Origin: a virus
IMG/VR virus record: IMGVR_UViG_3300049460_000371
Coordinates: 1 to 64,000 of that record
Reading direction: 5' to 3' (one strand)
DNA length: 64,000 bases
Shown here: piece by piece, positions 3,001-49,715 of the stretch
Position numbering within the stretch: position 1 is the first letter of the stretch
How the letters are laid out: each line of letters begins with the position of its first letter
Notes under the pieces: model-generated
Told to the model about the DNA's origin: nothing
The model's input: only the letters and a program-made list of their open reading frames with translations
Database searches by the model: none
Position numbers and translations under genes: made by a program

Positions 3001-3135
3001 CTTCACGAAGAAGGAAAGGATCATGAAATCATATTCTTGACGAAATATGTCAAAACCATCATGTTCGATGTCGTAAACTCCAGGTAGGTATTTCAAAACT
3101 TGATCGATTTCTGCTTGATTTCGTCAAGAATCATA
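3001..3135. repeat. non-coding element A, inverted copy of element B at 49619-49715
   Basis: 27-bp core 3067-3093 is the exact reverse complement of 49619-49645; internal 14-bp IR 3033-3046/3118-3131. Confidence 0.9.
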
Positions 3136-3160
3136 CTGGCATGTTTCTGCCCTTGTGTTC

Positions 3161-3167
3161 ATAAATA
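3161..3167 (+). promoter_or_regulatory. T4-like late promoter ATAAATA
   Basis: TAAATA recurs upstream of virion-type genes on both strands. Confidence 0.65.
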
Positions 3168-3216
3168 AACAACAACGTTTAACACCAGACTTGATTGGTG
3201 ACACATAGGAAGAAAT

Positions 3217-5007
3217 ATGACCCACGATATTCGTAAATTCATGAACTTGATGGAGAACGCCAAGGGTTCCCTGATGGAACTAGACTTGACTCCAAAAGAC
3301 GAGCCAAAGGTCGCCGTAAGTACACTTGGCCGTGACGAGCATGGCCGTGCCACGCATCCTGGTATTACCATGGAACCCACAAAGGGTAAGGTTACCGCGA
3401 AGCTTACCAGCTACAATAGTCAGTCCTACACGAAGCTGGCCCAGAAGGTACTTCGTATCAAAGAATTGTCCGCCGAAGTTAAGACTTTGGAAGAGGAAGT
3501 AAAACAAGAAACTCGCGAAGACATCGCTGACCTGTTCGGTGCCGCTGACATCGTTTACACCCGCGTGGTCGAGACTGTCAGCTTTGTTATGACGCTGAGT
3601 AAAAACCCAGAGCCAACCAAATCAGTCAAGTATGCGGAAGTACTGAAGGAACTGGAAGAACACTTGACGCCGGACTTGATCTCCAAATTGGAATTGATCA
3701 AGAAGAAGTTCTCCTCGATTTCAAACCGTTCACCATCCTTGTCGATTGCTGCTAAGGAAAGTGTGATGGAAGGCATGTGGGCCAAGTTCCGTGATTTCTT
3801 CCACCGCTTGTTGGAATCCATTATGGCTTGGGGTCAAAGCTACGACGAAAGCCTGAATCGTCTGCAATTGACCGCATCCGAGGCTGGTCTGATGACTGAA
3901 TCGGAAGGTGGTGGTGAAGATGTATATCCAGATGGCGAAGGTGGCGGTGACGACGTCATGGAAGATGAAGGTGAAGAAAGTGACAGTGATGAAGGCGATG
4001 ACTCCGGCGAAGAACAGTTGGACGAGATTTCGGATAACTTGGCTGATCGTGCCTATACAGCCCGTCTTGACAAATACAAGTCGGTGAAAGGTGTGGCTGA
4101 TAAAACTGCCGCTACTGCTGATTTCCATAAGCAAGCCGCTACTCATGGTGGTTTGGGTGTTGACAAAGCACAGTCAGCTAAAAGCTATGCAGTCGCCAAA
4201 GACGAAGCTGATCACTTCGCACAAGGTCAACGCAATGCTGCTGATAAGCTGAACAAGAATGCTCAGTTGAATCAAGGTCGTCAGTTCAACAAAATGGCAA
4301 AAATGGATCAGCACAACACTCCATATAGTCAGGATGCTCACGACGCTGATGAATACAACGCAGCCAAGGCAAAATCCGAAAAATATCGTGATCATGCTCC
4401 AGTTCGTGAAGACGAAGAAGAGGTAACGGAAACGGTTGACTACACCCGTATTGATCGTATCGAGAAGCAAGTTGAATTCATGGTTCGTTCGGGTCGTTCA
4501 CGTCAATACATCATCGCCAACATTGGCGAAAAGATGGGCCCTGAAGAAGCAGACTACGCGGGTGATTACTTCGACGAATACCACAAAGATCATGTGGGTT
4601 CGGATGCAACCATGGAATCGGCAGCACCAAAAAAAAGTAATGTGAAAAGTCTGTATGGCCACCAATACATCAAGGAAGACGAAGATGCAGGTGGCGATGC
4701 CGACGAAAAGGGCGATGATGCTGAATCGGAAGAAGTATCCGAGGATGATGTTGAAACTCCGGAAGGCGAAATGATGGCTGAGTTTCAGGCCAGTATGAAA
4801 GAGCCAATGGCTTATCAAACTGGTGCTACTGTTTACTGCGGCGGTCGTGAAGGTAAGATTGTTGGTACAGTTCCGGGTAAACCAGATACTTGGTTGGTAG
4901 AGCTGCCAAATGGTCAGCATGATGCTTTCCCTAAAGGCACAACATCAAGCGACAAGCCCTCTTTCTTCAAGAAAGCATTTCACTCGATTGTAGGCGAAAG
5001 CAAATAA
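3217..5007 (+). CDS. acidic putative internal head protein
   Basis: late promoter; N-terminus MTHDIRKFMNLME; many hydrophobic-X-Glu sites in acidic linkers. Confidence 0.6.
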   Translation: MTHDIRKFMNLMENAKGSLMELDLTPKDEPKVAVSTLGRDEHGRATHPGITMEPTKGKVTAKLTSYNSQSYTKLAQKVLRIKELSAEVKTLEEEVKQETREDIADLFGAADIVYTRVVETVSFVMTLSKNPEPTKSVKYAEVLKELEEHLTPDLISKLELIKKKFSSISNRSPSLSIAAKESVMEGMWAKFRDFFHRLLESIMAWGQSYDESLNRLQLTASEAGLMTESEGGGEDVYPDGEGGGDDVMEDEGEESDSDEGDDSGEEQLDEISDNLADRAYTARLDKYKSVKGVADKTAATADFHKQAATHGGLGVDKAQSAKSYAVAKDEADHFAQGQRNAADKLNKNAQLNQGRQFNKMAKMDQHNTPYSQDAHDADEYNAAKAKSEKYRDHAPVREDEEEVTETVDYTRIDRIEKQVEFMVRSGRSRQYIIANIGEKMGPEEADYAGDYFDEYHKDHVGSDATMESAAPKKSNVKSLYGHQYIKEDEDAGGDADEKGDDAESEEVSEDDVETPEGEMMAEFQASMKEPMAYQTGATVYCGGREGKIVGTVPGKPDTWLVELPNGQHDAFPKGTTSSDKPSFFKKAFHSIVGESK

Positions 5008-5010
5008 TCC

Positions 5011-5037
5011 AAAAGCCCGGAACTTCCGGGCTTTTTT
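5011..5037 (+). terminator. intrinsic terminator (AAAAGCCCGG family)
   Basis: AAAAGCCCGGAACTTCCGGGCTTTTTT. Confidence 0.85.
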
Positions 5038-5085
5038 ACGACACTTGAAACTAAATAACAGCATATAATTCATAGTGAGAATTCC

Positions 5086-5781
5086 ATGCGTTTTTCAGAA
5101 ATTTATAACTTGACCCAGCTCGATGAAACTGAATTGAGTGAGAAACAAACGGTACCGGAATATGGTACCGAATCTTATGGTACCTGGGAGATCAAGTACC
5201 GCAATGTCAAAAAGAATGGTAAGTTTGATGCTATGGGTATGCACAAACGCAATCCAAACATCCCTCGTGCAGCCTCTGATACAGTTGAAGATGCCATCGC
5301 TGATGTGAAAAAGCAAATCGACCGTTACATTGCCAATGATGACCAAGTGTTGAAATATAGCAAAGGTCAAATCAACCTCAATGCCGAGTTCACTCGTGAG
5401 TGTCTGGAACATGGCCCAACTGGTATTCGATTGTCTCGAGTCGGCGATGAAAGCATTTTGACTCTGTGCAGTCCTGAATATGCGGAGCTGGGCCCTGAAG
5501 TGTATGGCTCAGGCGAAGGTCAATTCACCAAACTGTTCCAGCGTAAACCAGGCACTGGCGATGAAGCTGGTGGCGCCGCCACTTTGTACTTGGCTGGTAT
5601 TACCACCAACAAGATTCGCCAATTGGGTCTTCAACCGAACGGACGTTACTCGTTGCAATATGTGGGCAAGGATCCGGAATACGGTCACCTGGTCTACAAA
5701 TTGATCTTCGACAGCATTACTGCCGGCCCAACCGATAAACAGCGCCTGCACACGCCTGGCTTGACGTTGGCGGTGTCATGA
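5086..5781 (+). CDS. late protein, putative virion-internal
   Basis: TAAATA at 5052-5057; N-terminus MRFSEI..LDE. Confidence 0.7.
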   Translation: MRFSEIYNLTQLDETELSEKQTVPEYGTESYGTWEIKYRNVKKNGKFDAMGMHKRNPNIPRAASDTVEDAIADVKKQIDRYIANDDQVLKYSKGQINLNAEFTRECLEHGPTGIRLSRVGDESILTLCSPEYAELGPEVYGSGEGQFTKLFQRKPGTGDEAGGAATLYLAGITTNKIRQLGLQPNGRYSLQYVGKDPEYGHLVYKLIFDSITAGPTDKQRLHTPGLTLAVS

Positions 5782-6050
5782 GATTTAGAGAATTTGCCCA
5801 CTACCGAGTAATAGTCGAGCTCGATGAAGATCGCTACGTTGGTGTCAATTATAATTTGAGTGGTCCCTGGCCTTCGCGTAGTATGAATGATAAGAACAGT
5901 TACTTGTTAGATGATCCGGAGATCTTGAATATTCAAGTCTACGATATCGATACAGGCGCTGAGATTACATCTACAATCACACCACATGAGCGGTCAATGA
6001 TTAAGGACTCAATTGCCACGGATCTAAATAAAGAAACTCGTGGCTATTGA
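5778..6050 (+). CDS. late protein with MRFREF N-terminus
   Basis: ATGA overlap with upstream gene. Confidence 0.7.
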   Translation: MRFREFAHYRVIVELDEDRYVGVNYNLSGPWPSRSMNDKNSYLLDDPEILNIQVYDIDTGAEITSTITPHERSMIKDSIATDLNKETRGY

Positions 6051-6061
6051 GTTCCTAAATA

Positions 6062-6220
6062 AAGACATGAAGTAGAGAAGATTTTGACCTTAGGACCTTG
6101 TTATCGTTAAGATGGCAAACAGGCGTCAAAAATGGCTGTCGCAGCCAGTTGGGGTGATTCGCTACCATTCCAGCAAACAGTGAACCGAGGGGAGCATCTT
6201 GCAGTGCTCCCCTCACCTTT
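6062..6220 (+). ncRNA. candidate structured non-coding RNA
   Basis: TAAATA 6056-6061, three stems, possible pseudoknot, terminator hairpin 6187-6214, no long ORF. Confidence 0.55.
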
Positions 6221-6272
6221 TGGAATTTCACTTTCCCTTTGCAAACTTACCAGTTGCCAGTAAAATGGCACT

Positions 6273-6560
6273 ATGATAAGTCATCGCGTCAAATCCTTCC
6301 TGTATGGAATTTTCGGGTCTCGTCTGCCACGAGTCGACGTGCCTGCTCATCAGTTGCATTACTATACAAAATTCATTCATAACGATATTGATCCGTATAT
6401 CATGAAGCCACTTGAATGGTTTAATAACCCCGAGTTAGTTCAATGGTTACGGGGAATTCCGCATCATATTGCTATGGATGACTATGACCGAGCCCAACCC
6501 AAATTCACGATAATTTTTCATCGTGATGCCGATGCTGTTATGTATCGTTTGAGGTACTAA
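6273..6560 (+). CDS. DA.LFKL-family small protein
   Basis: LVQWL...FHRDADAVMYRLRY. Confidence 0.75.
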   Translation: MISHRVKSFLYGIFGSRLPRVDVPAHQLHYYTKFIHNDIDPYIMKPLEWFNNPELVQWLRGIPHHIAMDDYDRAQPKFTIIFHRDADAVMYRLRY

Positions 6561-6898
6561 TGAAAAAGTTTATGTTTGGTAAGCTCGCCAATAAACTACG
6601 TCTCGGTACTGTGATTGACTATCCAGCGGCGTGCCGGGAACTTTGCCGCGATGTGACCATTCATGAACAGGATTATGACAAGGGTGTGAACATATTCATG
6701 GCCAAGTTTCGTGAAACTTCAATGTGGAACTGGCTGCAACAATGCGATGGTTATGCGTTGACTATGCAAGCAACCATGGATTACGGCGCACTCAATATTA
6801 TGGATTGGTATCAACCAATATACCTGAATATCAACATCGGAGAGATCCGATTTCGTAACGCCGTTGATGCGGCGACATTCAAACTGTCCTTCCCATGA
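6560..6898 (+). CDS. DA.LFKL-family small protein
   Basis: WNWL...FRNAVDAATFKLSF. Confidence 0.75.
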   Translation: MKKFMFGKLANKLRLGTVIDYPAACRELCRDVTIHEQDYDKGVNIFMAKFRETSMWNWLQQCDGYALTMQATMDYGALNIMDWYQPIYLNINIGEIRFRNAVDAATFKLSFP

Positions 6899-7320
6899 TG
6901 CCCAGCCTACTTGACCGATTTAATGAGATGATAATCGCTATCATTGACAGTTTGTTTGGTATGGGAGTGTTCATCATTCATGTAATGCGAACATTTTGGA
7001 CTTGGTCTATTCGTGGTGGCTTCCCTCAAACCCGCAACGATCTGACGACTGTGGTTCATACTGGATCTCCTCTGCTGCAAGGCAGACAAGTCCAAGTTCA
7101 TATGTATGAGACCTACAGCATGGACTCGTATCCGATTTTCACTGTTAGTGAGAAGTATTTGACACTGGAGTTTAAGGAGTGGCTCAAGGCCTCAGGAGCT
7201 TATAAAATTTCAGTCTTTGAACCATTTCACTCGTCTATCCATAGTCGTTACATCGTGATCTACTTTAGCAGCGAAGCACAAATGGCACTATACAAACTAA
7301 CTTGGGGTTGTGATGCTTGA
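6895..7320 (+). CDS. DA.LFKL-family protein with hydrophobic N-terminal segment
   Basis: FKEWL...FSSEAQMALYKLTWG. Confidence 0.75.
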   Translation: MMPSLLDRFNEMIIAIIDSLFGMGVFIIHVMRTFWTWSIRGGFPQTRNDLTTVVHTGSPLLQGRQVQVHMYETYSMDSYPIFTVSEKYLTLEFKEWLKASGAYKISVFEPFHSSIHSRYIVIYFSSEAQMALYKLTWGCDA

Positions 7321-7738
7321 ATTCATATTGACGGTAATACTGCATGTGCTGGATAAATCTGGGCTCGTGCCTGTGATTCAGTATTGCTATGAAGAGGTGC
7401 CCTCCTTTGTGTCTCATATCTGGAATTGGTATTTCTGTCGCAATCCATTGAAGTGGTTCGATGAGTCAACAGAAATCATGATTCGTAATCATACCAAATG
7501 GCCAGGAAGATCCTTATTCCATTTGATCAAATATATACCCAAGCACGAAGGGGATATGGTTCTTTCTACGTATGATACCAATTGGGTCATTAAGCCCAAT
7601 TTGAAAGAGTGGTTGGCGGGAAATGGGCCAAACCAGTTTAAGGCACTGATCAACTTGGAAACAGGCGACATTCATGTGCGGGTCAAGTTTGCATCTGCGG
7701 ATGATGCCGTTATGTGTCGCCTGTTGTGGTCAGCTTAA
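7310..7738 (+). CDS. DA.LFKL-family protein
   Basis: LKEWL...[15 protein letters not shown]. Confidence 0.75.
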
Positions 7739-8061
7739 ACGCCGAATGAATTGCCGCAACCGCATGTGGTGGTTGCTTGTGGATTCTTGATGCTGAATTG
7801 ACTACCCATAAGGTCTTCCACATAGTCCACTACCGCGCCTTCCAGGTATTGGGCACTCATCGAATCGACCAAAAGTTCATGCGTGGTTTCACCCAGTTTA
7901 ATCTGAAAGTCGTCTTCATTAACCGCGTCGTCGAATGTGAAGCCGTAGCTAAAACCAGAACAGCCACCACCTTGAACAAAAATACGCAGACGTGTTCCTG
8001 CTGGCTCTGAAGCCAACAAGTCAATTACTTTTGTGGATGCTGCATCAGTTAGTGTTACCAT
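7735..8061 (-). CDS. erpA: A-type iron-sulfur cluster insertion protein, ErpA-like
   Basis: [40 protein letters not shown]. Confidence 0.92.
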
Positions 8062-8105
8062 TTTGATCTCCTAAGTATGGGATCCTATTTAACGAGGTTT
8101 TGATA

Positions 8106-8423
8106 ATGATTACAATAACAGATTCAGCAATGCGTCATTTCTGCGAGATGATTTCTCGTAGCAAAGGCATGTGGCTGAAGCTCAGCGTGCGTCGTACTGG
8201 TTGCAGTGGGTACGCATATGCCCTGGAGCTAGTAAACGATTTGAGTGACGATCTCGTACCTCATGAGAGCAATGGCATTACGGTCCACATTCCAGAAAAA
8301 GACCAAGACATACTCCGTGGCCTTGAACTTGATTATCGTCGTGATGGGTTCTTTGATAATCTGGTCTTCAACAACCCCAATGCGAAATCGGAGTGCGGAT
8401 GCGGCGAATCATTCAGGCCATAA
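8106..8423 (+). CDS. iscA: A-type iron-sulfur cluster assembly protein, IscA/SufA-like
   Basis: VRRTGCSGYAY, FNNPNAKSECGCGESF. Confidence 0.88.
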   Translation: MITITDSAMRHFCEMISRSKGMWLKLSVRRTGCSGYAYALELVNDLSDDLVPHESNGITVHIPEKDQDILRGLELDYRRDGFFDNLVFNNPNAKSECGCGESFRP

Positions 8424-8770
8424 CTGACCTCAAACGGAAACTGTGGCGGATCATCTACGCCTACTATCCCGGCTTGACCCCATATAGCATCACACTTCAA
8501 CGCATTGACGGGTTGATGCATACTGGTAATACGCCTAGTGAACGTCATGGTCGTTTTACGAATGAGTATTTGACCGAGTCGCTCTACGCCGCCCCTGTGG
8601 GTAAATGGTTGGATGAGCGAACTCATGTTGTTGAGTTTGAGCTGATGACTACCGCACCATCAAGCAAATCTAGCAGAAGTGGTATCACCCGCGTGGCTCA
8701 CATTCGACTCAGTAGCGAGCTTGATATGGCCTTGTTCAAACTAACATTCGATTACGATGAGTACAAGTGA
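8393..8770 (+). CDS. DA.LFKL-family protein
   Basis: VGKWL...LSSELDMALFKLTF. Confidence 0.7.
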   Translation: MRMRRIIQAITDLKRKLWRIIYAYYPGLTPYSITLQRIDGLMHTGNTPSERHGRFTNEYLTESLYAAPVGKWLDERTHVVEFELMTTAPSSKSSRSGITRVAHIRLSSELDMALFKLTFDYDEYK

Positions 8771-9005
8771 TATAATATATGACAAACGTTTTCGTCGCGG
8801 AACGTTTGGTGGTCATAAAGTTGAAGTACCTGACGATAAGTTCAAACTGATGACCGAGCAACGTCATTGGGCCGTATGGGATCCAGACTTATTGCCTGGG
8901 GTTAAGGCATGGTTGTTGCAATATGGTCCATGGCGTAATAATGAGAAAACTTTCTATTTCGCGCGGGCGAGTACGGCCGCTTTATTCAAACTTCAATACT
9001 GCTAA
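8757..9005 (+). CDS. DA.LFKL-family small protein
   Basis: VKAWL...FARASTAALFKLQY. Confidence 0.75.
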   Translation: MSTSDIIYDKRFRRGTFGGHKVEVPDDKFKLMTEQRHWAVWDPDLLPGVKAWLLQYGPWRNNEKTFYFARASTAALFKLQYC

Positions 9006-9289
9006 TGGCTACAACGTTTAAATTATTGGTCGAACGGCATAGACGACTCTTTAACGAGTTACATGCGAGATTTGGCTACATGTCAATTATTATGACGTGG
9101 GGCGATAAGTTGATTGTGTTACGTCCTGATATTGCCGCGAGATTGATTGGTGACTACGACATCATGATTGACAACCAGGACAATAGCATACGTGGCAATG
9201 ATGTGATAAAGGTGTCCTTCACGGAAGAAGCAGATGCGATAATGTTCCGCATCTGCTATCTGGTTGATGGGCCATACGAAGTAGCTTAG
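9005..9289 (+). CDS. DA.LFKL-family small protein
   Basis: FTEEADAIMFRICY. Confidence 0.7.
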   Translation: MATTFKLLVERHRRLFNELHARFGYMSIIMTWGDKLIVLRPDIAARLIGDYDIMIDNQDNSIRGNDVIKVSFTEEADAIMFRICYLVDGPYEVA

Positions 9290-9933: not shown

Positions 9934-10023
9934 ATCAATACCTCAAATGAATATTTACCGGGATTCCTCGACGAATTAAACACCGATATTGCTTCATAGC
10001 GCCAGTCAAATTACAATCATGTA

Positions 10024-13741: not shown

Positions 13742-14224
13742 TTGCAAGATGCCGCAACACTTGAAGACTTTGCTGAACATACCGGCCAAGCTCCTCACCT
13801 ATATGTCTGGGAGATCAACTATTTTCCAGAACGCTCTCAACACCTGTTGACCTTACCTGAATGTCAATCACTCATCAATCTTATTTGGGTTGATCAGCTT
13901 CATCTACAAGGTGATCCGCCTGTCGTGCATGACGGCAGAGGGTCACGGTGCGCACGAACATTTGAGTCTCGCATCTATCTGCCTCGCTGGGCAAGAAATC
14001 CTATGGTTGTCATCCATGAGCTTGCGCACTGTGTAACTGACCTGTTCGATTCAGATGATAGTCAGGCACATGGGCCGCGTTATATGAAGGTCTACCTGTC
14101 ATTATGGGCCATCAACTCGTCATATAAATATCCAGCATTGCGCAAACACGCAAATCGCAATGGTCTTCGGGTTAGTCCGATAGACATGATGAAAAAGTTG
14201 AAAGGATTTCAAAGATGGAACTGA
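13742..14224 (+). CDS. SprT-like zinc metallopeptidase
   Basis: VVIHELAH...HGPRY; start codon ambiguous. Confidence 0.7.
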   Translation: MQDAATLEDFAEHTGQAPHLYVWEINYFPERSQHLLTLPECQSLINLIWVDQLHLQGDPPVVHDGRGSRCARTFESRIYLPRWARNPMVVIHELAHCVTDLFDSDDSQAHGPRYMKVYLSLWAINSSYKYPALRKHANRNGLRVSPIDMMKKLKGFQRWN

Positions 14225-37303: not shown

Positions 37304-37318
37304 CGGTTTCGAAGCGGC

Positions 37319-37346
37319 AAAAAGCCCGGGACGTCCCGGGCTTTTT
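37319..37346. terminator. bidirectional terminator, identical to 24588-24615
   Basis: 28-bp perfect palindrome. Confidence 0.85.
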
Positions 37347-37413
37347 CATTTGGAATTCGCTTGAGTGGATCAACTTTTTCAGTTACCATTTAGACAAATG
37401 AAAGGGATACATC

Positions 37414-43086: not shown

Positions 43087-43314
43087 ATGTCTAAAACTTT
43101 TGAACTCTCTGAACGTCAAGTAGAAGTAGTCCGTGCAATCCGCAAACTGCAACGCTCCCTGCGTCGCGCCCCAACCCAACGTGCGGTTGCTCAAGAAATT
43201 GGTACCATCGGCCGTCGTGGCGTTTGTCACGTTATCGCCAACCTGGCACGTCAAGGCGCAGTTGATGTCTATGGCAAAACCACCGCCATCAAGTTTTACG
43301 ACTTGAAAGCCTAA
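43087..43314 (+). CDS. LexA-type winged-helix DNA-binding protein (DNA-binding domain only)
   Basis: LSERQVEV...PTQRAVAQEIG...L.RQG; terminator downstream. Confidence 0.7.
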   Translation: MSKTFELSERQVEVVRAIRKLQRSLRRAPTQRAVAQEIGTIGRRGVCHVIANLARQGAVDVYGKTTAIKFYDLKA

Positions 43315-43414
43315 GCGCCCTAGTAGCCAAATGAGCCCGCTTCGTGCGGGCTTTTTTACGTCTGTTGATCTCTCGTGTGTTCATCAGTATAATGGCGTAT
43401 CTTAAGGGGACCAT

Positions 43415-43708
43415 ATGATCAAACTGACCGCATACGAACGTATCAAGCTGTATAGCAAGATCGCCATCGCCATGATCTACAACCTGAAACCAGGTCCCTT
43501 GATTGTTCTTAAGGGGAAGGGCCTGACCTATACGGTTCACAAGAACCTGTGGGTCACCATCAGCGATGGTCATTCCAAAGACATGCTGCCACTGAACTTC
43601 TGCTCGCAAGAATTCGTCGACAACATCTCGAAAGAACTCGAGAAGCGCTTCATTTTCAGGCTTCTGAAAATGACTCCCCGTGAACAAGAATATTTGGGCC
43701 AGCAATGA
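43415..43708 (+). CDS. hypothetical protein
   Basis: promoter and RBS upstream. Confidence 0.7.
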   Translation: MIKLTAYERIKLYSKIAIAMIYNLKPGPLIVLKGKGLTYTVHKNLWVTISDGHSKDMLPLNFCSQEFVDNISKELEKRFIFRLLKMTPREQEYLGQQ

Positions 43709-44055
43709 AACAACGCAATATCGTAAAGTGGTACAAGGCATTCGTTGCACCGAATGATAAGATGGCCCAGGATGTCATTGACGCATTACCCTATACCTTC
43801 GTGGTAATCAACCCCCAACTGTCATACAGCGGCCGCCGTGGTCGTGACGAGCGGGTGCGTGACGTCATTGCTTGGTTGCGAGCCAACGTCAACCGTGACC
43901 GGTATGTGCTGTGCAGCCATGTAAACCGCAATGATGTCATGACAGCACAATACGACAACGCGATGTGGCAGTTCGGCAAGATCTACGGCGTTGCATTCCA
44001 GCATGAAGAAGATGCAGTGCTGTTCAAACTGGCAAATATCCAGCATATTACTTGA
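43705..44055 (+). CDS. DA.LFKL-family protein
   Basis: VIAWL...FQHEEDAVLFKLA. Confidence 0.8.
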   Translation: MKQRNIVKWYKAFVAPNDKMAQDVIDALPYTFVVINPQLSYSGRRGRDERVRDVIAWLRANVNRDRYVLCSHVNRNDVMTAQYDNAMWQFGKIYGVAFQHEEDAVLFKLANIQHIT

Positions 44056-44094
44056 TCTCTTGTTCATTTGAACCTATACTAGGAACATCTGAAC
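44052..44094 (+). promoter_or_regulatory. early promoter cassette (31/32 identical to 29519-29550)
   Basis: TTGATC-17-TATACT. Confidence 0.8.
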
Positions 44095-44106
44095 CAGGAG
44101 GAAATT

Positions 44107-44298
44107 ATGCAAATCGATCTGCATCTTCAATTTCAAGAAGTTACCAACCAGGACGAACTGATCGCCAACGCACCAGTCGTACCAATGGTTGGTTCGTATA
44201 TCTGTTCGCAGCACCATGGGCTGCGACTTATTACCAAGATAGTGTATGAGTTCACTCCACAAGAACTGAAGGTGTTCCTCCGTACAGTGGTTGCATAA
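44107..44298 (+). CDS. small hypothetical protein
   Basis: RBS AGGAGG. Confidence 0.75.
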   Translation: MQIDLHLQFQEVTNQDELIANAPVVPMVGSYICSQHHGLRLITKIVYEFTPQELKVFLRTVVA

Positions 44299-44696
44299 TG
44301 TCACTAAAAGATTTGGTCCGGATTTACTGGGAACGAGAGCACGAAGCCTCGGCTTCCACTGAAGCTTGGTTAACTCACTTCACAAAGACGAGTTCACGCC
44401 AATGGCCAGGGCTTCTGGCACATTGCCCGTTCAGTGTGGTGCGGATCAAGCCTATCCCGTTCGACATTGATCATATCGGTCAAGTTGAATGTGCTATGTG
44501 GCTCGCACAGCAAAGCACGAATGGGCTCGACGTAAGCCTCATCATCGAGTCATATACACCAGATCGTTCCATCTATGTGTCACATATGAAATACGTGCTG
44601 TGGAACGATCCGCAGATCGCGGGCATTATTTGTCAGGATGATGCCGTGGCTGCAATGTTCAAGCTGACATTCCCAGAGCTGCTGTTTACCAGGTAA
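44298..44696 (+). CDS. DA.LFKL-family protein
   Basis: AMWL...CQDDAVAAMFKLTF. Confidence 0.75.
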   Translation: MSLKDLVRIYWEREHEASASTEAWLTHFTKTSSRQWPGLLAHCPFSVVRIKPIPFDIDHIGQVECAMWLAQQSTNGLDVSLIIESYTPDRSIYVSHMKYVLWNDPQIAGIICQDDAVAAMFKLTFPELLFTR

Positions 44697-44709
44697 TCAA
44701 CTATTTCAC

Positions 44710-45141
44710 TTGCCAGTTGTTATACTGTGGTCCAAACACCACAATATGGCAACTGTGAATAACGAATCTCCCCACACTTGGTATAATCGATATGGCCGCT
44801 ATCTGGGCCCATACTCGATCTTCAGAGCCTCGTCACCATTCCCAATCGTTGACCTGCCACCCAAGAAGTTTATCTCATTCTTGAATTGGTATAATTGGAA
44901 AGAACTCCAGGGACACTCAACACTGGATATGAATCGAGTCAATGAGTGTGGTTATTTGGAATGGCTGTTCGACAATCATACACCAGACGAATACTGCTTC
45001 GTCTATAAAACCACGATGGAAAACGAAGGCCATGTTACCGACCCTGAGTTGTCATGGTCCCCGTACCTATCAGCTATTCTTTTTTGTTCAGAAGAAAAGG
45101 CAGTCATGTTTCGATTGACCTGCGCGGAACATTTGATATGA
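44710..45141 (+). CDS. DA.LFKL-family protein
   Basis: LEWL...FCSEEKAVMFRLT. Confidence 0.75.
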   Translation: MPVVILWSKHHNMATVNNESPHTWYNRYGRYLGPYSIFRASSPFPIVDLPPKKFISFLNWYNWKELQGHSTLDMNRVNECGYLEWLFDNHTPDEYCFVYKTTMENEGHVTDPELSWSPYLSAILFCSEEKAVMFRLTCAEHLI

Positions 45142-45599
45142 TCCCAGGTTACGAAAATTACTATGACTGGTTGATCAAGGCACGTGAATCAAATTTAACC
45201 GTGGCGCCATGGTTGGCAGGATTCACGCAATGGGTCAATCACCGTGATTACTCATACCTGGTTGCTTCTCATCCAGGTTACTTGATCAAGTTAACGGCTG
45301 ATCACTTTTACTGCATTGCTGCCGAGTGTTGGATCACCAATTGGGCGAAAGAACACATCAAGGATCATCACGATGGCACCGAGGCATTTGCCGTCATCCC
45401 TGTATCAAATTTTGGGTTAGTCCGACTCAAACATGAATATGGTTTGATCACAACCAATCGAGATCGAGCAGCCGCGCACTATCCAGAAGTCCGCCGTGTG
45501 CTGTTTGATCGGGCAGAAGATGCTGCTCTGTTCAAACTCACATTCCTGGATAAAATCACACCAGTTATCCACAAAGTAAACTACGAGGAAAAATTATGA
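45138..45599 (+). CDS. DA.LFKL-family protein
   Basis: ITNW...FDRAEDAALFKLTF; ATGA coupling. Confidence 0.75.
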   Translation: MIPGYENYYDWLIKARESNLTVAPWLAGFTQWVNHRDYSYLVASHPGYLIKLTADHFYCIAAECWITNWAKEHIKDHHDGTEAFAVIPVSNFGLVRLKHEYGLITTNRDRAAAHYPEVRRVLFDRAEDAALFKLTFLDKITPVIHKVNYEEKL

Positions 45600-45982
45600 A
45601 GTATGTGGCAATATTCAGACAATACGGTGAAGGTTGCGACTACACAATCGCGTGCGGCCAAAAATCGTTCACATTCGACGCACTTGCGGACGACGTCGCA
45701 CATGAATTCATCTTGAACAAAATTCGTGAAGAGCACGCAAGTGACGACTACAAGCTGGAACTTGTCCAACTTTTCAGAGTGGGCGAAGAAATCAAAGTTG
45801 ATCTCAAGGCACTCTACAGTGAAATCAACTCTGACCGACAAGCAGAAGAAGCGGGTCGCAAGTTGCGCAAAGCTGAACAAGAGTTGGCCCAGGCACAGAA
45901 AGCAGTGGCGGAAGCTGAAGAGAATCGCAAAGCCTTCCTGAAACATTTCTATGAAACTGGCGACGGTGGCGGCACTACGTAA
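45596..45982 (+). CDS. hypothetical protein with coiled coil
   Basis: GEGCDYTIACG; RBS GAGGA. Confidence 0.75.
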   Translation: MKYVAIFRQYGEGCDYTIACGQKSFTFDALADDVAHEFILNKIREEHASDDYKLELVQLFRVGEEIKVDLKALYSEINSDRQAEEAGRKLRKAEQELAQAQKAVAEAEENRKAFLKHFYETGDGGGTT

Positions 45983-46109
45983 GAATCGTTTGTAATTTGC
46001 GCTAACGCATAACAGTCAGCAAAGTATGTTGCTATTATCCTAATACAGCTTGGTTCCATCGCTGAGCTGTAGAAAGGGAAAGGTGACCTATGTAGGCTTT
46101 TTGGCTGAT

Positions 46110-46137
46110 AAAAAAGCCCGGAGGTTCCGGGCTTTTT
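46110..46137. terminator. bidirectional terminator between convergent units
   Basis: AAAAAGCCCGGAGGTTCCGGGCTTTTT. Confidence 0.85.
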
Positions 46138-46138
46138 G

Positions 46139-46372
46139 TTAACTCCAATACTGCCTGACGTTTGACCCCGCACCACCAGCATCAGAAATGATACCAGCAG
46201 CCGAAACGGTTCCGCGATCAGTTGGAACACCCTGAAACACCAGGTTGTTAACTGGTTCCAAATCCAACAACGGGAAACCGGTTACTTGGCCACGTTGAAT
46301 GGAGGTATTTGCATAAACCGCAGGTAACACCAAACGAATAGTAGCACCTTGTATTGATCCAATACTTGCCAT
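46139..46372 (-). CDS. small virion-cassette protein
   Basis: last gene of - strand late operon; RBS GAGGTG. Confidence 0.7.
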   Translation of the reverse strand: MASIGSIQGATIRLVLPAVYANTSIQRGQVTGFPLLDLEPVNNLVFQGVPTDRGTVSAAGIISDAGGAGSNVRQYWS

Positions 46373-46380
46373 ATATCACC

Positions 46381-47313
46381 TCATACTGGAATCAAACAAC
46401 GATCATATTGTGTCTGCCCAACATTAAGTACATGATGTGACACCGCGGTACCTGTAGTAGACTGATGATAATTTGAATCAACCAATACCGATGCCTTATC
46501 CATGTCATTCCACACAGTATTGCCGTACACCATTTTGATACCCAAAATACGACCACGCAATTTGGCTATCGACGAGCCCAAAGCGGATGACAACATTTCC
46601 ACCGCGGTCATAGTCAATGCCCCATTTTGAACAGAACCAGCAGCCAACGTACTTATTGGGTAACCACTTCCTGGCATTCCCAATGCGGTAACTACATTGT
46701 TATATGGAGTCGTAGAACTACCAGTCGTGAGGCCATTTGCTACACCACGTAATGATCCAAAAAAACCAAACCCACCAGAATTGGGATAGATTATTTGATG
46801 TGTACCAATAAAGATATTGGTCGATATCGTATCGTCTTCGCCAAAGTCTTTAGCAATTTCAAATGATCCAAACAAGAAACCATATACTAACAAGTTTGAA
46901 CGTAATCTAGTTGCAAGCCAGCGTTGATTGACAAACATTACAATGGCGGCACCATCGGCTATTGTAATTGCTTGATTGCCGAATACCGAGCCAGAACCAG
47001 AACCAGTACTGTAGTAGGTGCCGTCGTTGGTACCAACGTGAGTAGTTGCATTCCACGATTCCCAAATCTTGAATAACATTGCGGTAGTGCTAAATGCGAT
47101 TTGAACATACTTGTATGTTGATGCACTACCTTGTTGAAGAGTACGATATACTCGCCCGACCGTCAAACCGCCAGGGGCGGCGGCATCATACTGTGTCCAG
47201 CCCTTCGATACGATGTACGCATCGATTGCTGTCATGATTGATGCAGGTGTATCTGTCGCCGCCATTACAAACATGGACGAGTTTGGTCCTAAAATTGTTT
47301 CTACCATTGCCAT
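46381..47313 (-). CDS. putative virion fibre/structural protein, paralog of 47972-48904
   Basis: Gly/Ser/Thr-rich; same 310-aa length and termini as paralog. Confidence 0.75.
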   Translation of the reverse strand: MAMVETILGPNSSMFVMAATDTPASIMTAIDAYIVSKGWTQYDAAAPGGLTVGRVYRTLQQGSASTYKYVQIAFSTTAMLFKIWESWNATTHVGTNDGTYYSTGSGSGSVFGNQAITIADGAAIVMFVNQRWLATRLRSNLLVYGFLFGSFEIAKDFGEDDTISTNIFIGTHQIIYPNSGGFGFFGSLRGVANGLTTGSSTTPYNNVVTALGMPGSGYPISTLAAGSVQNGALTMTAVEMLSSALGSSIAKLRGRILGIKMVYGNTVWNDMDKASVLVDSNYHQSTTGTAVSHHVLNVGQTQYDRCLIPV

Positions 47314-47325
47314 AATATTCCCTCG

Positions 47326-47907
47326 TTATTGGTATTCAAATCTGACCATCAAATCTGAGCCGTTACCACTCAAGATGTCGATAGTCAAATACTCATTCGA
47401 CGCCATACTAACTGAGAGCGGAATGATAGTTGATGTGTTTGATGTTGCAGCAATAGTCGGCTTTGCTCCGGCACCAAAAATACTTACACCACTTTTCTTC
47501 ACGTCGATTACTAATTGCGAAGACGGAGCGGTGGTGATAGCCATAAACACTGACTGAAGTGTTACTGACTTACCAGGGTACCATCTGATGGTACCGATCG
47601 ACGATGATATCAGCCCAGGGAAGAACGAAGTAGTGAGCTGCGGGCTGTTTACTTTGGTAACCCACTCAAGTTTTGTTGCATCTGAACTAACCTGCAATAT
47701 ACTCCCTGGCGTTGAGCCACCAGTAGTTGGCCACTGTTTACCATGGAATGCAATTTTGTCAGTCGCTAATTGCAATGGTGATGCGGTGGCATCACCGCCC
47801 TCAACTGTTCTAAGCGTTGAGTCCAACCCAAAACCTCGTCCCTGGCTGTTAATTTTCAACAGCTCCTTGAACGAATCTTTAGGGCTTCGATTCTGTAATG
47901 TTGTCAT
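47326..47907 (-). CDS. putative fibre adaptor/structural protein
   Basis: late promoter 47926-47931 (-); N-terminus related to 62710-63333. Confidence 0.7.
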   Translation of the reverse strand: MTTLQNRSPKDSFKELLKINSQGRGFGLDSTLRTVEGGDATASPLQLATDKIAFHGKQWPTTGGSTPGSILQVSSDATKLEWVTKVNSPQLTTSFFPGLISSSIGTIRWYPGKSVTLQSVFMAITTAPSSQLVIDVKKSGVSIFGAGAKPTIAATSNTSTIIPLSVSMASNEYLTIDILSGNGSDLMVRFEYQ

Positions 47908-47971
47908 AATTAATCCTCAAACGTATATTTATCAGTAAAATCATTGGAACAAACAAGTCTGTAAATGAACA

Positions 47972-48904
47972 TCAGACTGGTATCAAAAAACGAGCATATG
48001 TTTGACCAGATGGATTAATGATGTGATGGCTTACTGATGTACCACTCGGGCTTTCGTGATAATTGGCATCAACTAATACCTGCGCGGTGTCCATATCGTT
48101 CCATGATGCTGAGGTAAGAGCTATTTTGGCGCCAAACACTCGACCACGTAGTAATTTAACACCAGACGATGAAATGTTAACTGCCAGTTCGACCGCAGTT
48201 ATGGTTGCCGCAATACTGGTGCCATACGCTGAGATTATTGAGCCAAGGGATAAACTTTGAAGTGGTAAACCAGTTGGAAGCACAATACTGTTATATGTAC
48301 TTGCTACTACTCCTGTCGTATTGGAATTACTAACACCGCGTAACGATCCGTAGAATCCGGCCGACGTATTAATTGGATATGCCGACGGTGTGCTAGTCAT
48401 AAAGATATTGGATAGGGTAGAATCCGCCTCGCCGTAGTCCTTCGATATTTCAAACGCCCCGTTAATGACACTGTAAACGAGAGTGTTAGACACCGCTCTA
48501 AATGCTAACCATTTTGGATTCACAAACATCACCACACCATAGCCTGCTGTGCCAGTAACGGTCGGTGCCGTTCCACCAAGGGAAACCGAACCACCAGGGT
48601 TATAATACGTACCATCATTGGTGCCCACATGAGTGGACGAATTCCATGATTCCCAAATCTTCAATTGAATGGTGGCTGCCGATACTGCTATGCCCACATA
48701 TTTGTACGTTACCGCACTACCATCTTGCAGGGCGCGATAAACACGACCTACCGTTTGACCTTGTGGAGCGGCAGCATCATAAAGTGTCCAGCCCTTTGAT
48801 GTAATGTACGTGTCCAGAGCAGTCATAACTGTTGCTGGAGTCTCACCTGTCCCATAGGTAAACAGAGATGAGTTAGGCCCCAAGATTGTTTCTGATATTG
48901 CCAT
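47972..48904 (-). CDS. putative virion fibre/structural protein, paralog of 46381-47313
   Basis: late promoter 48934-48939 (-); ETILGPNSS, KIWESWN, WNDMD shared. Confidence 0.75.
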   Translation of the reverse strand: MAISETILGPNSSLFTYGTGETPATVMTALDTYITSKGWTLYDAAAPQGQTVGRVYRALQDGSAVTYKYVGIAVSAATIQLKIWESWNSSTHVGTNDGTYYNPGGSVSLGGTAPTVTGTAGYGVVMFVNPKWLAFRAVSNTLVYSVINGAFEISKDYGEADSTLSNIFMTSTPSAYPINTSAGFYGSLRGVSNSNTTGVVASTYNSIVLPTGLPLQSLSLGSIISAYGTSIAATITAVELAVNISSSGVKLLRGRVFGAKIALTSASWNDMDTAQVLVDANYHESPSGTSVSHHIINPSGQTYARFLIPV

Positions 48905-49012
48905 ATAAGCTCCTGTTATGTATTAAGGTGCCTTATTTAGTACCCACGAGCAACAGTTGACTTTATTCATTTGGTGCAATATCATACTTGAAATTAGCCA
49001 AGTGAGGACACA

Positions 49013-49534
49013 ATGAAAGACTTCCGGGATCAACTGAATGCTGCGCGTGAAGCTCTGAATATCGCCGAGGTGCCACGAGATCCATACAAGGTGGATCGGG
49101 TGGTGAGTCTAGCCCATCGCGTTCGCATGGTGACCAATCCCCTACCAGTACCAACCGTATGTCCGCACTGCCAGGGGACGGTTGGCCTCTACAACAACCG
49201 CAAGGTCTACAACGGCCGCGAGTTCGGTAAATGGCCCTACGTTTACCTTTGCGAGAACGTCGCCTGCGGGGCTCACGTGGGTTTGCACCCAGAGACTGAC
49301 ATCCCGCTTGGAACGCTTGCCACTGACGCTATACGACAGGCCCGGCAGATTGCCAAGAGTTCCTTCAACGACCTCCATGAAGACGGCGGCCCCATGGCTT
49401 CCCGCACTGCGGCATATGAATGGTTGGCAGCGAAAATGGGGATCGAGGTTGGAACATGCCATATAGGCTGGTTCAATGAACAGCAGTGTGATCGTGTGGT
49501 TGAACTATGTGATGAATATTTCATGAACCTGTAA
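49013..49534 (+). CDS. zinc-finger protein (DUF3268-like)
   Basis: CPHC..YLC..CGAHVGLH..TDIPLGTLA; AYEWLA..MG....CHIG. Confidence 0.75.
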   Translation: MKDFRDQLNAAREALNIAEVPRDPYKVDRVVSLAHRVRMVTNPLPVPTVCPHCQGTVGLYNNRKVYNGREFGKWPYVYLCENVACGAHVGLHPETDIPLGTLATDAIRQARQIAKSSFNDLHEDGGPMASRTAAYEWLAAKMGIEVGTCHIGWFNEQQCDRVVELCDEYFMNL

Positions 49535-49563
49535 TATTCTGGCAACAATCGTTGCTCTTATAC

Positions 49564-49605
49564 AAAAATGACGTATTCCGGTTTCGGCTGGTTTACGTCA
49601 TTTTT
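49564..49605. repeat. 12-bp inverted repeat (hairpin or terminator) next to element B
   Basis: AAAAATGACGTA ... TACGTCATTTTT. Confidence 0.75.
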
Positions 49606-49618
49606 ATGACGAGAATCA

Positions 49619-49715
49619 AAATACCTACCTGGAGTTTACGACATCAGGTGTGTCATTTCTGACATACTTCGTCAAGAATCATAGAAACATGATCTTCTTC
49701 TTTCTTCATGGAAAG
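49619..49715. repeat. non-coding element B, inverted copy of element A
   Basis: 27-bp exact core plus 19/20-bp second box at the same 14-nt spacing. Confidence 0.9.

Follow-up and report, generated by a model that had tools for sequence, protein, structure and literature searches.

Two inverted non-coding sequences in this DNA are copies of a polar, multi-copy element of ~190 nt that belongs to an uncultured lineage of T4-like jumbo phages, and each copy borders a zone of strand-skewed base composition that lies on one side of it. We analyzed a window of 64,000 nt (positions 1-64,000 of IMG/VR record IMGVR_UViG_3300049460_000371) along with its 87,353-bp source contig (G0) and related contigs. 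Across three contigs, the association between copies of the element and skew is far beyond chance. The element probably marks the place and the direction in which the phage repeatedly opens its DNA. The reading that we prefer, but hold tentatively, is that RNA or DNA synthesis may start there in one direction and leave the displaced strand unpaired, as happens at oriF and oriG of T4.

The element and its copies

The two copies in the window, A and B, consist of the following parts.

3067-3093, + strand: core 27-mer of copy A, within which the inner 20 nt (3070-3089) do not vary among the ten copies known
49619-49645, - strand: core 27-mer of copy B, an exact inverted match to the core of copy A
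3033-3055, + strand: box L of copy A, the palindrome ATTCTTGAnGAAT and then ATGTCA..; box L is present in nine of ten copies
49660-49679, - strand: box L of copy B, 19/20 identical to copy A (3033-3052), at the same 14-nt spacing
2989-3024, + strand: hairpin 1 of copy A, in two tiers (outer stem ATGAT/ATCAT, inner stem CCTTC/GAAGG)
49689-49727, - strand: hairpin 1 of copy B (inner stem CTTTC/GAAAG)
3094-3131, + strand: right flank of copy A, in which box L recurs in inverted form at 3118-3131 (it scores 29, where the best shuffle reached 24)
49564-49605, no strand assigned: hairpin with a 12-bp stem and runs of A and T on either side, adjoining copy B on its unskewed side

The initial annotation had pointed out the inverted 27-mers, the second box and a perfect 14-bp inverted repeat (3033-3046/3118-3131) around copy A, and sequence comparison bore out all three. 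The 27-nt pair is the sole inverted repeat of at least 24 nt linking the two regions; the other seven inverted pairs found in the same comparison are terminator-like hairpins or weak matches. A third copy of the 27-mer was not found in the whole source contig, allowing up to 8 mismatches in 27. Two sister contigs from the same rhizosphere metagenome (G1 and G2), which originate from T4-like jumbo phage, contain eight further copies, bringing the total to ten. Because all three contigs derive from a single sample and have almost no genes in common, the ten copies may sit in one or two genomes rather than in independent lineages.

Hairpin 1 has the same fold in 9/9 copies in which it is present, and both of its tiers show compensatory changes. 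It comprises 4-7 mostly mixed A-T/G-C pairs, without the T run typical of terminators. The inverted box scores above all 200 shuffles in five of the ten copies, copy B not being among these, and its distance varies among copies. No Rfam family matched at its gathering score anywhere in the window. From its sequence, the hairpin at 49564-49605 looks like a two-way terminator closing the gene at 49013-49534; its stem was read from the letters and seen in the fold, and the hairpin scan, with a loop limit of 8, missed it.

The complete 424,529-bp genome of a relative (G3), whose polymerase is 70-78% identical to that of G1, contains the first 21 nt of the core four times. No kb-scale skew adjoins any of these copies; a mild A/C-richness is confined to the nearest 100 nt, in 3/4 copies at or below the 5% quantile.

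One-sided skew and its base composition

The skew zones of the window lie directly beyond hairpin 1 of each copy.

1800-2988, no strand assigned: skew zone of copy A, + strand A/C-rich (1-kb GC skew -0.39, AT skew +0.22)
49728-52500, no strand assigned: skew zone of copy B, + strand G/T-rich

In 500-bp windows, GC skew is -0.40 and -0.47 at 2001-3000 and 0.00 at 3001 on the side of copy A, and +0.31 and +0.31 at 49501-50500 on the side of copy B, where AT skew stays at about -0.2 out to 52500. Scanning the contig for zones with at least 62% G+T or A+C per 600 bp returned exactly two, 1701-3100 and 49501-50500, both at elements; between scans, the limits of the zone at copy A vary from 1701 to 1801 and from 3100 to 3200. 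Both analyses agree with the earlier remark that composition is skewed on the outer sides only, and the base counts quoted for it (25 A, 22 C, 9 T and 4 G at 2581-2640; 22 G, 21 T, 14 A and 3 C at 49741-49800) are exact. GC content is 0.43-0.46 beside copy A and 0.37-0.40 beside copy B, against ~0.47 for the contig. Since the + strand is A/C-rich to the left of copy A, the - strand, which runs 5'->3' away from the element, is G/T-rich there.

The same polarity holds for 10/10 copies on the three contigs: 1-kb GC skew is -0.23 to -0.41, with the same sign relative to the core, and 0/10 copies are skewed on the opposite side. AT skew (0.15-0.26 over 1 kb) has the matching sign in all ten zones, and the upstream 1-kb GC skew of every copy falls within the top 2.3% of all windows. 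The edge of the skew is sharp, ~115 nt from the core, and the skew fades over ~3 kb to reach zero by about -3.5 kb. Conversely, 13 of the 15 strong GC-skew zones on the three contigs adjoin a copy with the predicted sign. The initial annotation had proposed that any further 27-mer should predict a skew edge of matching polarity; all eight copies on the sister contigs do so, and the G/T-rich strand runs 5'->3' away from the element in all ten. One of them, G1_199355, consists of core and right flank only, yet is skewed (GC skew -0.25), which points to the core as the determinant of the skew.

Independent unitigs from the sole public run containing this DNA end at the repeat, with mean depths of 14.1 and 11.1 on its two sides, and none of the pieces listed (8 of 16) bridges copy A. 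The 46.5-kb spacing between copies A and B is therefore that of the original assembly. Unitig ends, unequal depth, and inverted boxes that resemble terminal repeats in five of ten copies are what one would see if the repeat were an assembly artefact or a passive, MITE-like mobile sequence with no link to the skew. We regard this as extremely improbable. The ten copies lie in ten unique contexts with each zone physically joined to its core; at copy A this junction is independent of the original assembly, as unitig 1 spans 1-3095. Had the assembly been mis-joined at the repeat, flanks of like orientation would have been exchanged and the finding would still hold. With a passive repeat, the skew would not be expected to have the predicted side and sign in 10/10 cases, nor does the variable distance of the inverted box suit one.

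We then compared base composition between zones and background. On the strand running away from the element, C changes by -0.11, T by +0.09, A by -0.05 and G by +0.07, and the purine share is unchanged (0.51 vs 0.50). The shift is strongest at synonymous sites, and is seen at 4-fold and 2-fold sites whichever strand codes. Against a 4-fold background of A.22, C.26, G.22 and T.30, genes on the G/T-rich strand have A.15, C.14, G.27 and T.44, and genes on the other strand show the mirror image, in line with the opposite shifts in synonymous codon use reported from the window. In zone A genes, third-position C is 0.41-0.47 vs 0.09-0.16 for G; in zone B genes, third-position T is 0.33-0.45 vs 0.09-0.13 for A. 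The loss of C and A and gain of T and G at constant purine content indicate a footprint of transitions of the deamination type, matching the C->T and A->G changes suggested earlier. Enrichment of G and T on an unpaired strand is likewise expected for the mitochondrial H strand. The sign of the skew fits a non-template or displaced strand, for which general background is available (excerpts of PMC3269012 and PMC2695485).

From composition by itself, mutation cannot be told apart from selection for a G/T-rich strand as the cause. Selection could act if a C-poor, G/U-rich RNA or a G-poor template were needed beside the element, and the purpose could be hybrid formation, escape from Rho or from a C/A-dependent RNase, or recombination as proposed for GRINS. 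T enrichment is no help to the stability of RNA:DNA hybrids. The ten zones are nearly alike in composition (A.20-.23, C.13-.17, G.27-.31, T.30-.35), the short A/C-rich tract recurs at three of four G3 copies, and the GRINS paper, in the part available, ties correlated GC and TA skews to gene conversion (PMC8256042), all of which would suit selection. We nevertheless find it distinctly unlikely, because synonymous sites change most and purines are untouched, as under pure transitions, and because the smooth 3-kb decay and the damaged protein composition look like a pressure that is resisted rather than a designed block. Nor are the zones duplicates of one another: zones A and B share only the 27-mer, and of three blastn matches of at least 150 nt between the source contig and G1 or G2, none lies within a zone.

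A transition footprint that starts sharply ~100 nt from the site, decays over ~2-3 kb and affects C and A on one strand would also result if the element recruited a deaminating enzyme. The element would then anchor a natural, strand-specific local hypermutation, in which a machine loads at the 27-mer, moves one way, and either exposes one strand of the neighboring accessory genes or deaminates it enzymatically. Zones do contain mostly small accessory genes, and the presence of skew on G0-G2 and its absence from G3 suit a lineage-specific factor. If this were true, the 1-3 kb of accessory genes beside each copy would evolve much faster than other parts of the genome, giving giant phages a built-in generator of diversity. 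We consider it a long shot: PF00383 (cytidine/dCMP deaminase) has no match in the three contigs, which are estimated to be 23-70% complete (the control was positive in 12/14 genomes), and the loss of C is not specific to TC context, with ratios by preceding base of 0.52 (G), 0.57 (A), 0.71 (T) and 0.89 (C).

Copy orientations are grouped, with three minus copies followed by three plus copies on G1, and one plus followed by three minus copies on G3. Ter and Chi sites have similarly grouped orientations, which would fit a polar barrier or processing signal met from the skewed side, such as a fork trap resembling Ter, or a hotspot of the Chi or break-and-resection kind. This is very improbable given the strand concerned. 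If forks arriving from the zone were arrested, or if a break at the core were resected 5'->3', the A/C-rich strand would be the one exposed, contrary both to a deamination footprint and to the preference of RecA-type proteins for GT. In addition, Chi is not 27 nt long and has no hairpin attached.

Genes at the loci and a possible start site of synthesis

The genes in the two zones of the window are all on the + strand.

1898-2464, 2452-2706 and 2703-2993, + strand: three tandem genes of zone A, coded by the A/C-rich strand and aimed at the element
50207-50761, 50792-51208 and 51205-51765, + strand: genes of zone B

The zone A genes form a small paralog family with a C-terminal motif of the ..E.DA.LFKL.W type, of which a motif search found 11 members on G1. 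Two of the zone B genes have matches, to phrog_36523 (E 1.2e-19) and to an endolysin-like family (E 5.5e-10), and the first ~480 nt of zone B hold no ORF of at least 40 aa on the + strand. The skew is independent of the coding strand, as had been argued from the + strand genes on both flanks. At 3/10 loci, neighboring genes are aimed toward the element, so that anything started there would run antisense to them. At the other 7/10, ORF maps show the nearest zone ORFs running away from it. This direction is backed by family matches or conserved paralogs at five loci, namely copy B, G1_171066 (AAA ATPase), G2_25948 (YqeY-like), G1_199355 (M41 peptidase) and G1_79647, and by ORF length only at G1_14621 and G2_79839. 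Copy G1_79647 lies inside a 320-nt gap between diverging gene blocks, a gap that must therefore hold promoters, and both this copy and copy B are located at switches of transcription direction.

These arrangements raise the question of whether the element is a very active, specialized promoter with a structured leader, the skew being a by-product of transcription alone that arises from strand-asymmetric damage or repair affecting the non-template strand, with no role in replication. ORFs leaving the element at seven of ten loci, the divergent gap at G1_79647, a sigma70-family protein encoded on G1 and a skew whose sign fits the non-template strand are consistent with it. On the other hand, 19 sigma70-like promoters of the phage itself leave no footprint (downstream 1-kb GC skew -0.08 to +0.09), and a transcript from the element would run antisense to real genes at three of ten loci. 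We found in the element neither a conserved sigma70 -35/-10 pair or MotA box common to the copies nor the phage's own promoter class (TTG..TTCAnnTGAA..TAnnnT). A search for a T7-type RNA polymerase was negative, its positive control being silent as well. The conserved block of 27 nt exceeds what a sigma-type promoter needs, and we know of no report, and found none in the literature, of a GC skew of 0.4-0.5 caused by transcription alone. On balance we judge the promoter explanation unlikely, though worth keeping in mind.

We tentatively infer instead that single-strandedness lies behind the skew and that it stems from synthesis starting at the element. The element would be a fixed start of one-directional nucleic-acid synthesis, in which a hybridised primer RNA (R-loop) or a nick-primed leading strand would set out at the core, cross the hairpin and enter the DNA beyond it. 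The opposite strand would stay unpaired over 1-3 kb until lagging-strand synthesis covers it, and generations of C and A deamination on the exposed strand would write the G/T-rich footprint.

Several lines of evidence favor a start site. The first is the one-sided skew itself, together with its near-exclusive occurrence at copies, its transition-like make-up and the lack of skew at ordinary promoters. The second is the antisense arrangement at three loci, comparable to T4 oriG, whose primer RNA is annotated in the T4 record as opposite to gene 34 (that of oriF is the uvsY transcript). Third, G1 encodes T4-type machinery, including a gp43-type DNA polymerase (phrog_262, E 1.9e-181), RIIA, sheath and baseplate wedge, and in T4 lacking the gp41 helicase, leading-strand synthesis is described as covering only ~2.5 kb (PMC3016281, in part), the length scale of the zones. 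Fourth, the location of G1_79647 and copy B at transcription switches resembles that of several T4 origins as described in the same review (PMC3016281). The G3 copies without kb-scale skew, and T4 oriF and oriG without such a footprint, count against a simple origin, and the failure to find a conserved promoter, a Phage_GPA nickase or, in the search with the silent control, a T7-type polymerase counts against a start site. Base composition next to the copies gives no clear sign of an A+T-rich unwinding element. Of the initial proposal, the polar cis-acting site stands, while its examples, namely origins, D- or R-loops and helicase or nick loading sites, stay conjectural: we could link the element to none of the expected factors, be it a promoter, initiator, nickase or polymerase.

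Comparison with known systems

Like the element, T4 oriF and oriG are short (~100-200 bp), polar and present several to a genome in a T4-type phage (Kreuzer & Brister 2010, PMC3016281). According to the excerpted text, their R-loops persist and keep the non-template strand single-stranded; the primer RNA runs one way and is either the transcript of a gene or complementary to one (PMC3016281; T4 record). The T4 origins are described there as having no common sequence, each combining a MotA-dependent promoter with an A+T-rich unwinding element (PMC3016281), whereas the element has a 27-mer core in all copies, plus box and hairpin, and no recognizable promoter. Kb-scale keto skew is present at the element and absent at the T4 origins: oriF has a GC skew over ~750 nt only, without AT skew, oriG has none, and in the 58 kb of T4 examined no 600-nt window exceeds 57% G+T.

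In organelles, as here, C->T and A->G changes affect the unpaired strand, silent sites respond most strongly, amino-acid use is altered and the effect is graded with distance. Organelle asymmetry extends over the whole genome and is linked to one or two origins. Its examples include the G/T-rich mitochondrial H strand and chloroplast deamination gradients, attributed to strand displacement (excerpts of PMC3269012, PMC2695485). The element differs in having patches of 1-3 kb at many dispersed sites of a 300-400-kb double-stranded phage genome.

The localized nick sites of phiKMV-, T5- and tf-like phages are also specific, strand-polar, multi-copy and non-coding (PMC3517423, in part). By eye, the words CCTA, CCTGGAG and CGAC on the core strand entering the zone recall the phiKMV consensus CGACxxxxxCCTA/CTCCGG (PMC3517423), but their order differs and the core does not match that consensus. 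Known nick sites, as far as that source describes them, are all on one genome strand (PMC3517423), whereas copies of the element occur on both. By analogy, a nick at the core would prime displacement synthesis in the required direction.

PeSL cassettes are conserved composite non-coding stem-loop repeats between small accessory genes of T4-type genomes, as the element is (PMC4122927, PMC2839356, both in part). They are numerous, combine an early sigma70 promoter with a terminator and are proposed to shuffle modules, and the excerpted text does not describe skew (PMC4122927). The element has few copies, a one-sided skew and no sigma70-type site, and hairpin 1 lacks a terminator-type T run.

A published description of such a site-anchored skew was not found, and GRINS come closest. 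In GRINS, too, GC and TA skews are intense and correlated across more than 500 bp, are most pronounced at third positions and go with the same amino-acid shifts (2021, PMC8256042, in part). All ten zones have the composition by which GRINS are defined, with correlated GC and TA skews that each average more than 0.15 in absolute value across a region longer than 500 bp (PMC8256042). GRINS are, however, duplicated regions with over 80% identity within a gene cluster (PMC8256042), and no such duplication of a zone was seen between zones A and B or, among blastn matches of at least 150 nt, between the source contig and G1 or G2. As far as the available part of that paper goes, GRINS have both skew signs on one strand, and an anchoring cis element or polarity is not described (PMC8256042), whereas each zone here has one sign, set by the orientation of the conserved element.

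The inverted pair and its sister copies

We examined the inverted pair of elements, copy A and copy B, in the window, which is the first 64 kb of one virus contig of 87,353 bp. Sequence comparison agrees with the initial annotation in its details: the 27-nt core at 3067-3093 is the exact reverse complement of that at 49619-49645, the second box matches at 19/20 positions with the same 14-nt spacing in both copies, a perfect 14-bp inverted repeat surrounds copy A, and both quoted base counts are exact on recount. This 27-nt pair is the sole inverted repeat of at least 24 nt joining the regions of copies A and B, and no further 27-mer copies occur in the contig with up to 8 mismatches allowed. 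Measured per 500 bp, GC skew reaches -0.40 and -0.47 across 2001-3000, against 0.00 from 3001 on; at 49501-50500 its value is +0.31, and AT skew stays near -0.2 as far as 52500. Exactly two zones in the contig reach 62% G+T or A+C per 600 nt, each at an element. Beyond the window, contig positions 78501-79400 hold a third skewed patch (GC skew +0.29 to +0.37, AT skew positive), which is purine-rich, not keto-rich, has no element nearby, and overlaps an ORF (78494-79180) with a homolog on G2.

The exact core is also found six times on G1 (296,594 bp) and twice on G2 (113,103 bp), IMG/VR contigs of one metagenome. A reversed-pattern control of the core search gave zero matches, a profile made from the copies and run on the three contigs recovers the same ten and nothing else, and a search for the exact core in metagenome contigs gave 0 matches.

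Exact core copies on the three contigs
Window, 3067-3093, plus strand: core of copy A
Window, 49619-49645, minus strand: core of copy B
G1, 14621, minus strand: core copy
G1, 79647, minus strand: core copy
G1, 102971, minus strand: core copy
G1, 171066, plus strand: core copy
G1, 199355, plus strand: core copy
G1, 261669, plus strand: core copy
G2, 25948: core copy
G2, 79839: core copy

On the strand that carries the core as GATGTCG..., the skewed side of each copy is the 5' side. The 1 kb 5' of the core has a GC skew of -0.23 to -0.41 and an AT skew of +0.15 to +0.26 in 10/10 copies, and every value ranks in the top 2.3% among all windows of that size; across the core, the adjoining 1 kb stays within -0.09 to +0.09. 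Averaged over the copies, the skew sets in sharply about 115 nt from the core, peaks at -0.38 at 400-600 nt, and falls smoothly to zero by about 3.5 kb. Further copies of the 27-mer had been predicted to mark a skew edge of matching polarity, and all eight on G1 and G2 do. Merging windows whose |GC skew| is 0.28 or more gives 15 zones on the three contigs, 13 of which adjoin a copy and have the predicted sign. One G/T zone, at 32.6-33.6 kb of G1, consists of a low-complexity repeat of Ala/Gly type and was rejected as an instance of the same phenomenon. Same-orientation copies cluster along the genome; the directions predicted on G1 converge between 103 and 171 kb, and one pair of copies diverges in the window, as does one in G003, a complete relative treated below.

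The contigs are metagenomic and all come from one sample; the only run containing this DNA is a rhizosphere metagenome, probably the source sample. At copy A, loose unitig ends continue into sequence flanking two other copies, G1_199355 and G2_79839, and therefore all three contigs are in the same sequencing run. Only eight ORF pairs link the window contig to G1 and G2 at E below 1e-8. Being nearly without common genes, the three contigs may belong to one genome or to two; the ten copies do not stand for ten independent lineages. Mean depth of the Logan unitigs in window 1-8000 is 14.1 vs 11.1 on the two sides of copy A, the left unitig extends 1,764 nt past the contig start, and among the 8 unitig pieces listed (of 16) none bridges copy A. 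Strain variation, or a mis-join at the repeat, may account for these unequal depths. If flanks had been swapped between copies, the polarity result would stand, but the spacing of 46.5 kb could be different.

Anatomy and distribution of the element

Read on the strand where the core is GATGTCG..., the element opens with a two-tier hairpin (-81 to -45). The outer stem is ATGAT/ATCAT, altered on both sides in one copy (ATTCTT/AAGAAT), and the inner stems among the copies are CCTTC/GAAGG, CTTTC/GAAAG, ATCTTC/GAAGAT, ACAATC/GATTGT, CTATC/GATAG, CTAT/ATAG, and CATC/GATG. The hairpin folds alike in 9/9 copies having the module, and RNAalifold recovers it too; the compensatory changes indicate pairing within a single strand, whether RNA or DNA. 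A box follows (ATTCTTGAnGAAT then ATGTCAGAAA, 9/10 copies), then a 10-14-nt spacer and the core, in which 20 nt are invariant in 10/10 copies and 27 nt nearly invariant. Beyond the core, at variable distance, lies an inverted copy of the box that scores better than all 200 shuffles in 5/10 copies, copy B not being one of the five. In G1_199355 the element consists of core and right flank alone, and the skew is nevertheless present.

Other readings of the conserved stretch were rejected. A consensus RNA fold spanning the full element is not supported: RNAalifold gives hairpin 1 alone, and the long arms are out of register. Read as a small protein (frame ..PGVYDI..), the element has a frame that ends 1-31 codons past the core among 15 copies, with an inconsistent start. 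The ORF-level match between copy A and G2_79839 is merely the conserved DNA. Rfam gave no match to the element.

G1 codes for a gp43-type DNA polymerase, RIIA, a tail sheath, a baseplate wedge, and a ribonucleotide reductase, and the polymerase shares 51.6% identity with its counterpart in Sinorhizobium phage Phosso, 49.1% with the one in Agrobacterium phage Atu_ph07, and about 42% with those of RaK2-like phages. Cultured phages, near or distant, gave no DNA matches (best E-value 2 for the element alone). Phosso and Atu_ph07, the closest cultured relatives by polymerase, contain no core at up to 3 mismatches and no nhmmer match, and zones comparable to the contig's are absent from both: Atu_ph07 has weak GC-skew windows only, without AT skew, and the sole Phosso zone is a proline-codon repeat.

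Scans with 14-mer half-cores gave 218 new loci, mostly chance, with a related element only on two contigs, G003 and G004; a set of loci sharing GATGTCGTAAACTCCAGCAATT.. resembles unrelated coding sequence and was set aside. G003, from another metagenome, is 424,529 bp long with direct terminal repeats, is rated 100% complete, and has a polymerase 70-78% identical to that of G1.

Sites on G003 that match the core's first 21 nt
132686, plus strand: core copy
155902, minus strand: core copy
190337, minus strand: core copy
276682, minus strand: core copy

There are no keto-skew zones at all on G003, and only the 100 nt adjoining its cores are mildly A/C-rich (G+T.34,.38,.44, and.40; null.50, sd.06). 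A fifth related copy, with 1 mismatch on a 31.9-kb contig, is without skew as well. Since the core is present in G003 without skew, the core is the older of the two, and the kilobase-scale footprint is special to the window's lineage. Just 5' of the G003 cores are short, iteron-like direct repeats (among them a 10-mer in three copies and an 11-mer in two).

Genes in the skew zones and the origin of the skew

Right of copy B, PHROG matches show genes on the G/T-rich strand, and the genes on that strand adjoining G1_171066 and G2_25948 encode an AAA ATPase and a YqeY-like protein, respectively. Adjacent genes point away from the element at 7 loci and toward it at 3 (one judged by eye only; the 293-aa ORF beside G1_102971 was taken as real by eye only). 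The skew is independent of gene direction, being seen over genes of either strand. A small paralog family coded on the A/C-rich strand left of copy A also points toward G1_261669 and has at least 11 members of normal composition on G1; in the members closest to the element, the motif is worn toward G-poor codons.

Sites of the paralog family
Window, 1898-2993: three tandem genes left of copy A
G1, 199.7-205.1 kb: family members
G1, 259.2-262.8 kb: family members

The family's proteins are 70-110 aa long, end in ..E.DA.LFKL.(W/Y), and often form tandem arrays, the worn motif lying inside skew zones. Selection on the composition itself is among the chief competing explanations of the skew, and we consider it quite unlikely.

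Synonymous codon use is shifted in opposite directions by coding strand. At 4-fold sites, the background (A.22, C.26, G.22, T.30) becomes A.15, C.14, G.27, T.44 in G/T-strand genes. The corresponding values in genes of the other strand are A.29, C.38, G.15, T.18, in a tally whose 'anti' class includes at least one spurious A/C-strand ORF (G1 169885-171009, rejected as a gene, the opposite ORF having an AAA domain). At 2-fold sites, T/(C+T) moves from.51 to.80 in G/T-strand genes or.37 in the others, and G/(A+G) from.48 to.80 or.19. Over the ten zones, the outward strand is A.219, C.154, G.292, T.335, with a keto share of.627 and a purine share of.511 vs.500. C to T and A to G changes on one strand with an unshifted purine share form a pattern of transitions, which is what deamination of an exposed strand would give. 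C loss has no TC-specific signature, and the contigs gave no match to cytidine/dCMP deaminase, Phage_GPA, or UDG families. Enzyme-driven targeted deamination is another competing reading, which we regard as very unlikely. Stop-codon recoding behind the many short ORFs was rejected, as no genetic code lengthened them sensibly.

A specialised promoter, with purely transcription-linked asymmetry, is an unlikely source of the skew. Scans for sigma70 promoters and intrinsic terminators found none inside the element, and no skew follows the 19 ordinary promoters (TTG.., TTCAnnTGAA box, TAnnnT; 12, 3, and 4 on the three contigs; range -0.08 to +0.09). A search for T7-type RNA polymerase gave no match, its control being likewise silent everywhere. 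The ordinary promoters form a uniform, sigma70-like class and read TTGAy, about 8 nt, the palindromic TTCAnnTGAA, 2 nt, and TAtAAT, with a Shine-Dalgarno and start codon about 20-30 nt later; the palindromic box may be an operator. The 12 on the contig are all on the plus strand (window 228-57051, contig 64890-85140). A sigma70-family gene is present on G1 (region 2, E 2e-19, 305-aa frame; piece L013, 7507-7716, minus strand). Near-identical hairpins AAAAAGCCCGG..CCGGGCTTTTT, flanked by A and T runs at 5011-5038, 24584-24616, 37318-37350, and 46109-46138, are probably two-way terminators. The window also contains an NAD-dependent DNA ligase gene (53955-56015, PHROG E 1e-187) and one tRNA gene, tRNA-Asp (13973-14064).

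We tentatively favor a different cause, in which the element is a polar start site of displacement-type synthesis. The footprint's sign would set the direction, the strand left unpaired being the one running 5' to 3' outward from the core; synthesis would thus begin at the element and proceed into the zone. Events with a fixed starting point that stop at variable distances would account for the sharp edge and the 1-3-kb decay. The primer could be an RNA persisting as an R-loop, leaving the non-template strand single-stranded, as PMC3016281 describes for T4 oriF and oriG; a nick in the strand entering the zone would serve equally well. The same review reports that leading-strand synthesis in T4 extends no further than about 2.5 kb when the gp41 helicase is missing (PMC3016281). 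In the T4 record, the oriG primer runs antisense to gene 34, and the uvsY transcript serves as the oriF primer. The element is like these T4 origins in its length scale, in its sense/antisense mix, and in that two copies sit at transcription-direction switches. Models of a barrier or of resection predict the wrong strand and are extremely improbable.

Significance and comparison with known systems

To our knowledge, hardly any replication origins or other DNA-opening sites are known from giant phages, the majority of which have not been cultured. If a cis element writes a directional footprint, start sites and their direction would be readable from metagenomic sequence alone. The footprint also shows that, over kilobases, a local process can override which codons and even which amino acids real genes use, with a bearing on the diversification of giant-phage accessory genes and on the unexplained skews of GRINS, duplicated bacterial gene regions with intense nucleotide skews.

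No description of site-anchored, kilobase-scale keto skew in phages was found in full-text literature on jumbo-phage strand asymmetry, R-loop origins, and nucleotide skews. The core loosely resembles the phiKMV nick consensus, in a non-colinear way, and departs from that consensus; the element falls outside the definition of PeSL cassettes. It behaves like T4 origins but comes out negative in the promoter test that defines them. The annotated T4 oriF has GC skews of +0.38, +0.30, and +0.18 over its first 750 nt with AT skew absent, and oriG has no skew. GRINS (PMC8256042) have a similar skew but, unlike the zones here, are duplicated, occur in both signs, and are without a described anchoring element. 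The asymmetry of organelle strand-displacement is similar as well. We class what we describe as an origin-type strand asymmetry that is here local, multi-site, and bound to a defined cis element.
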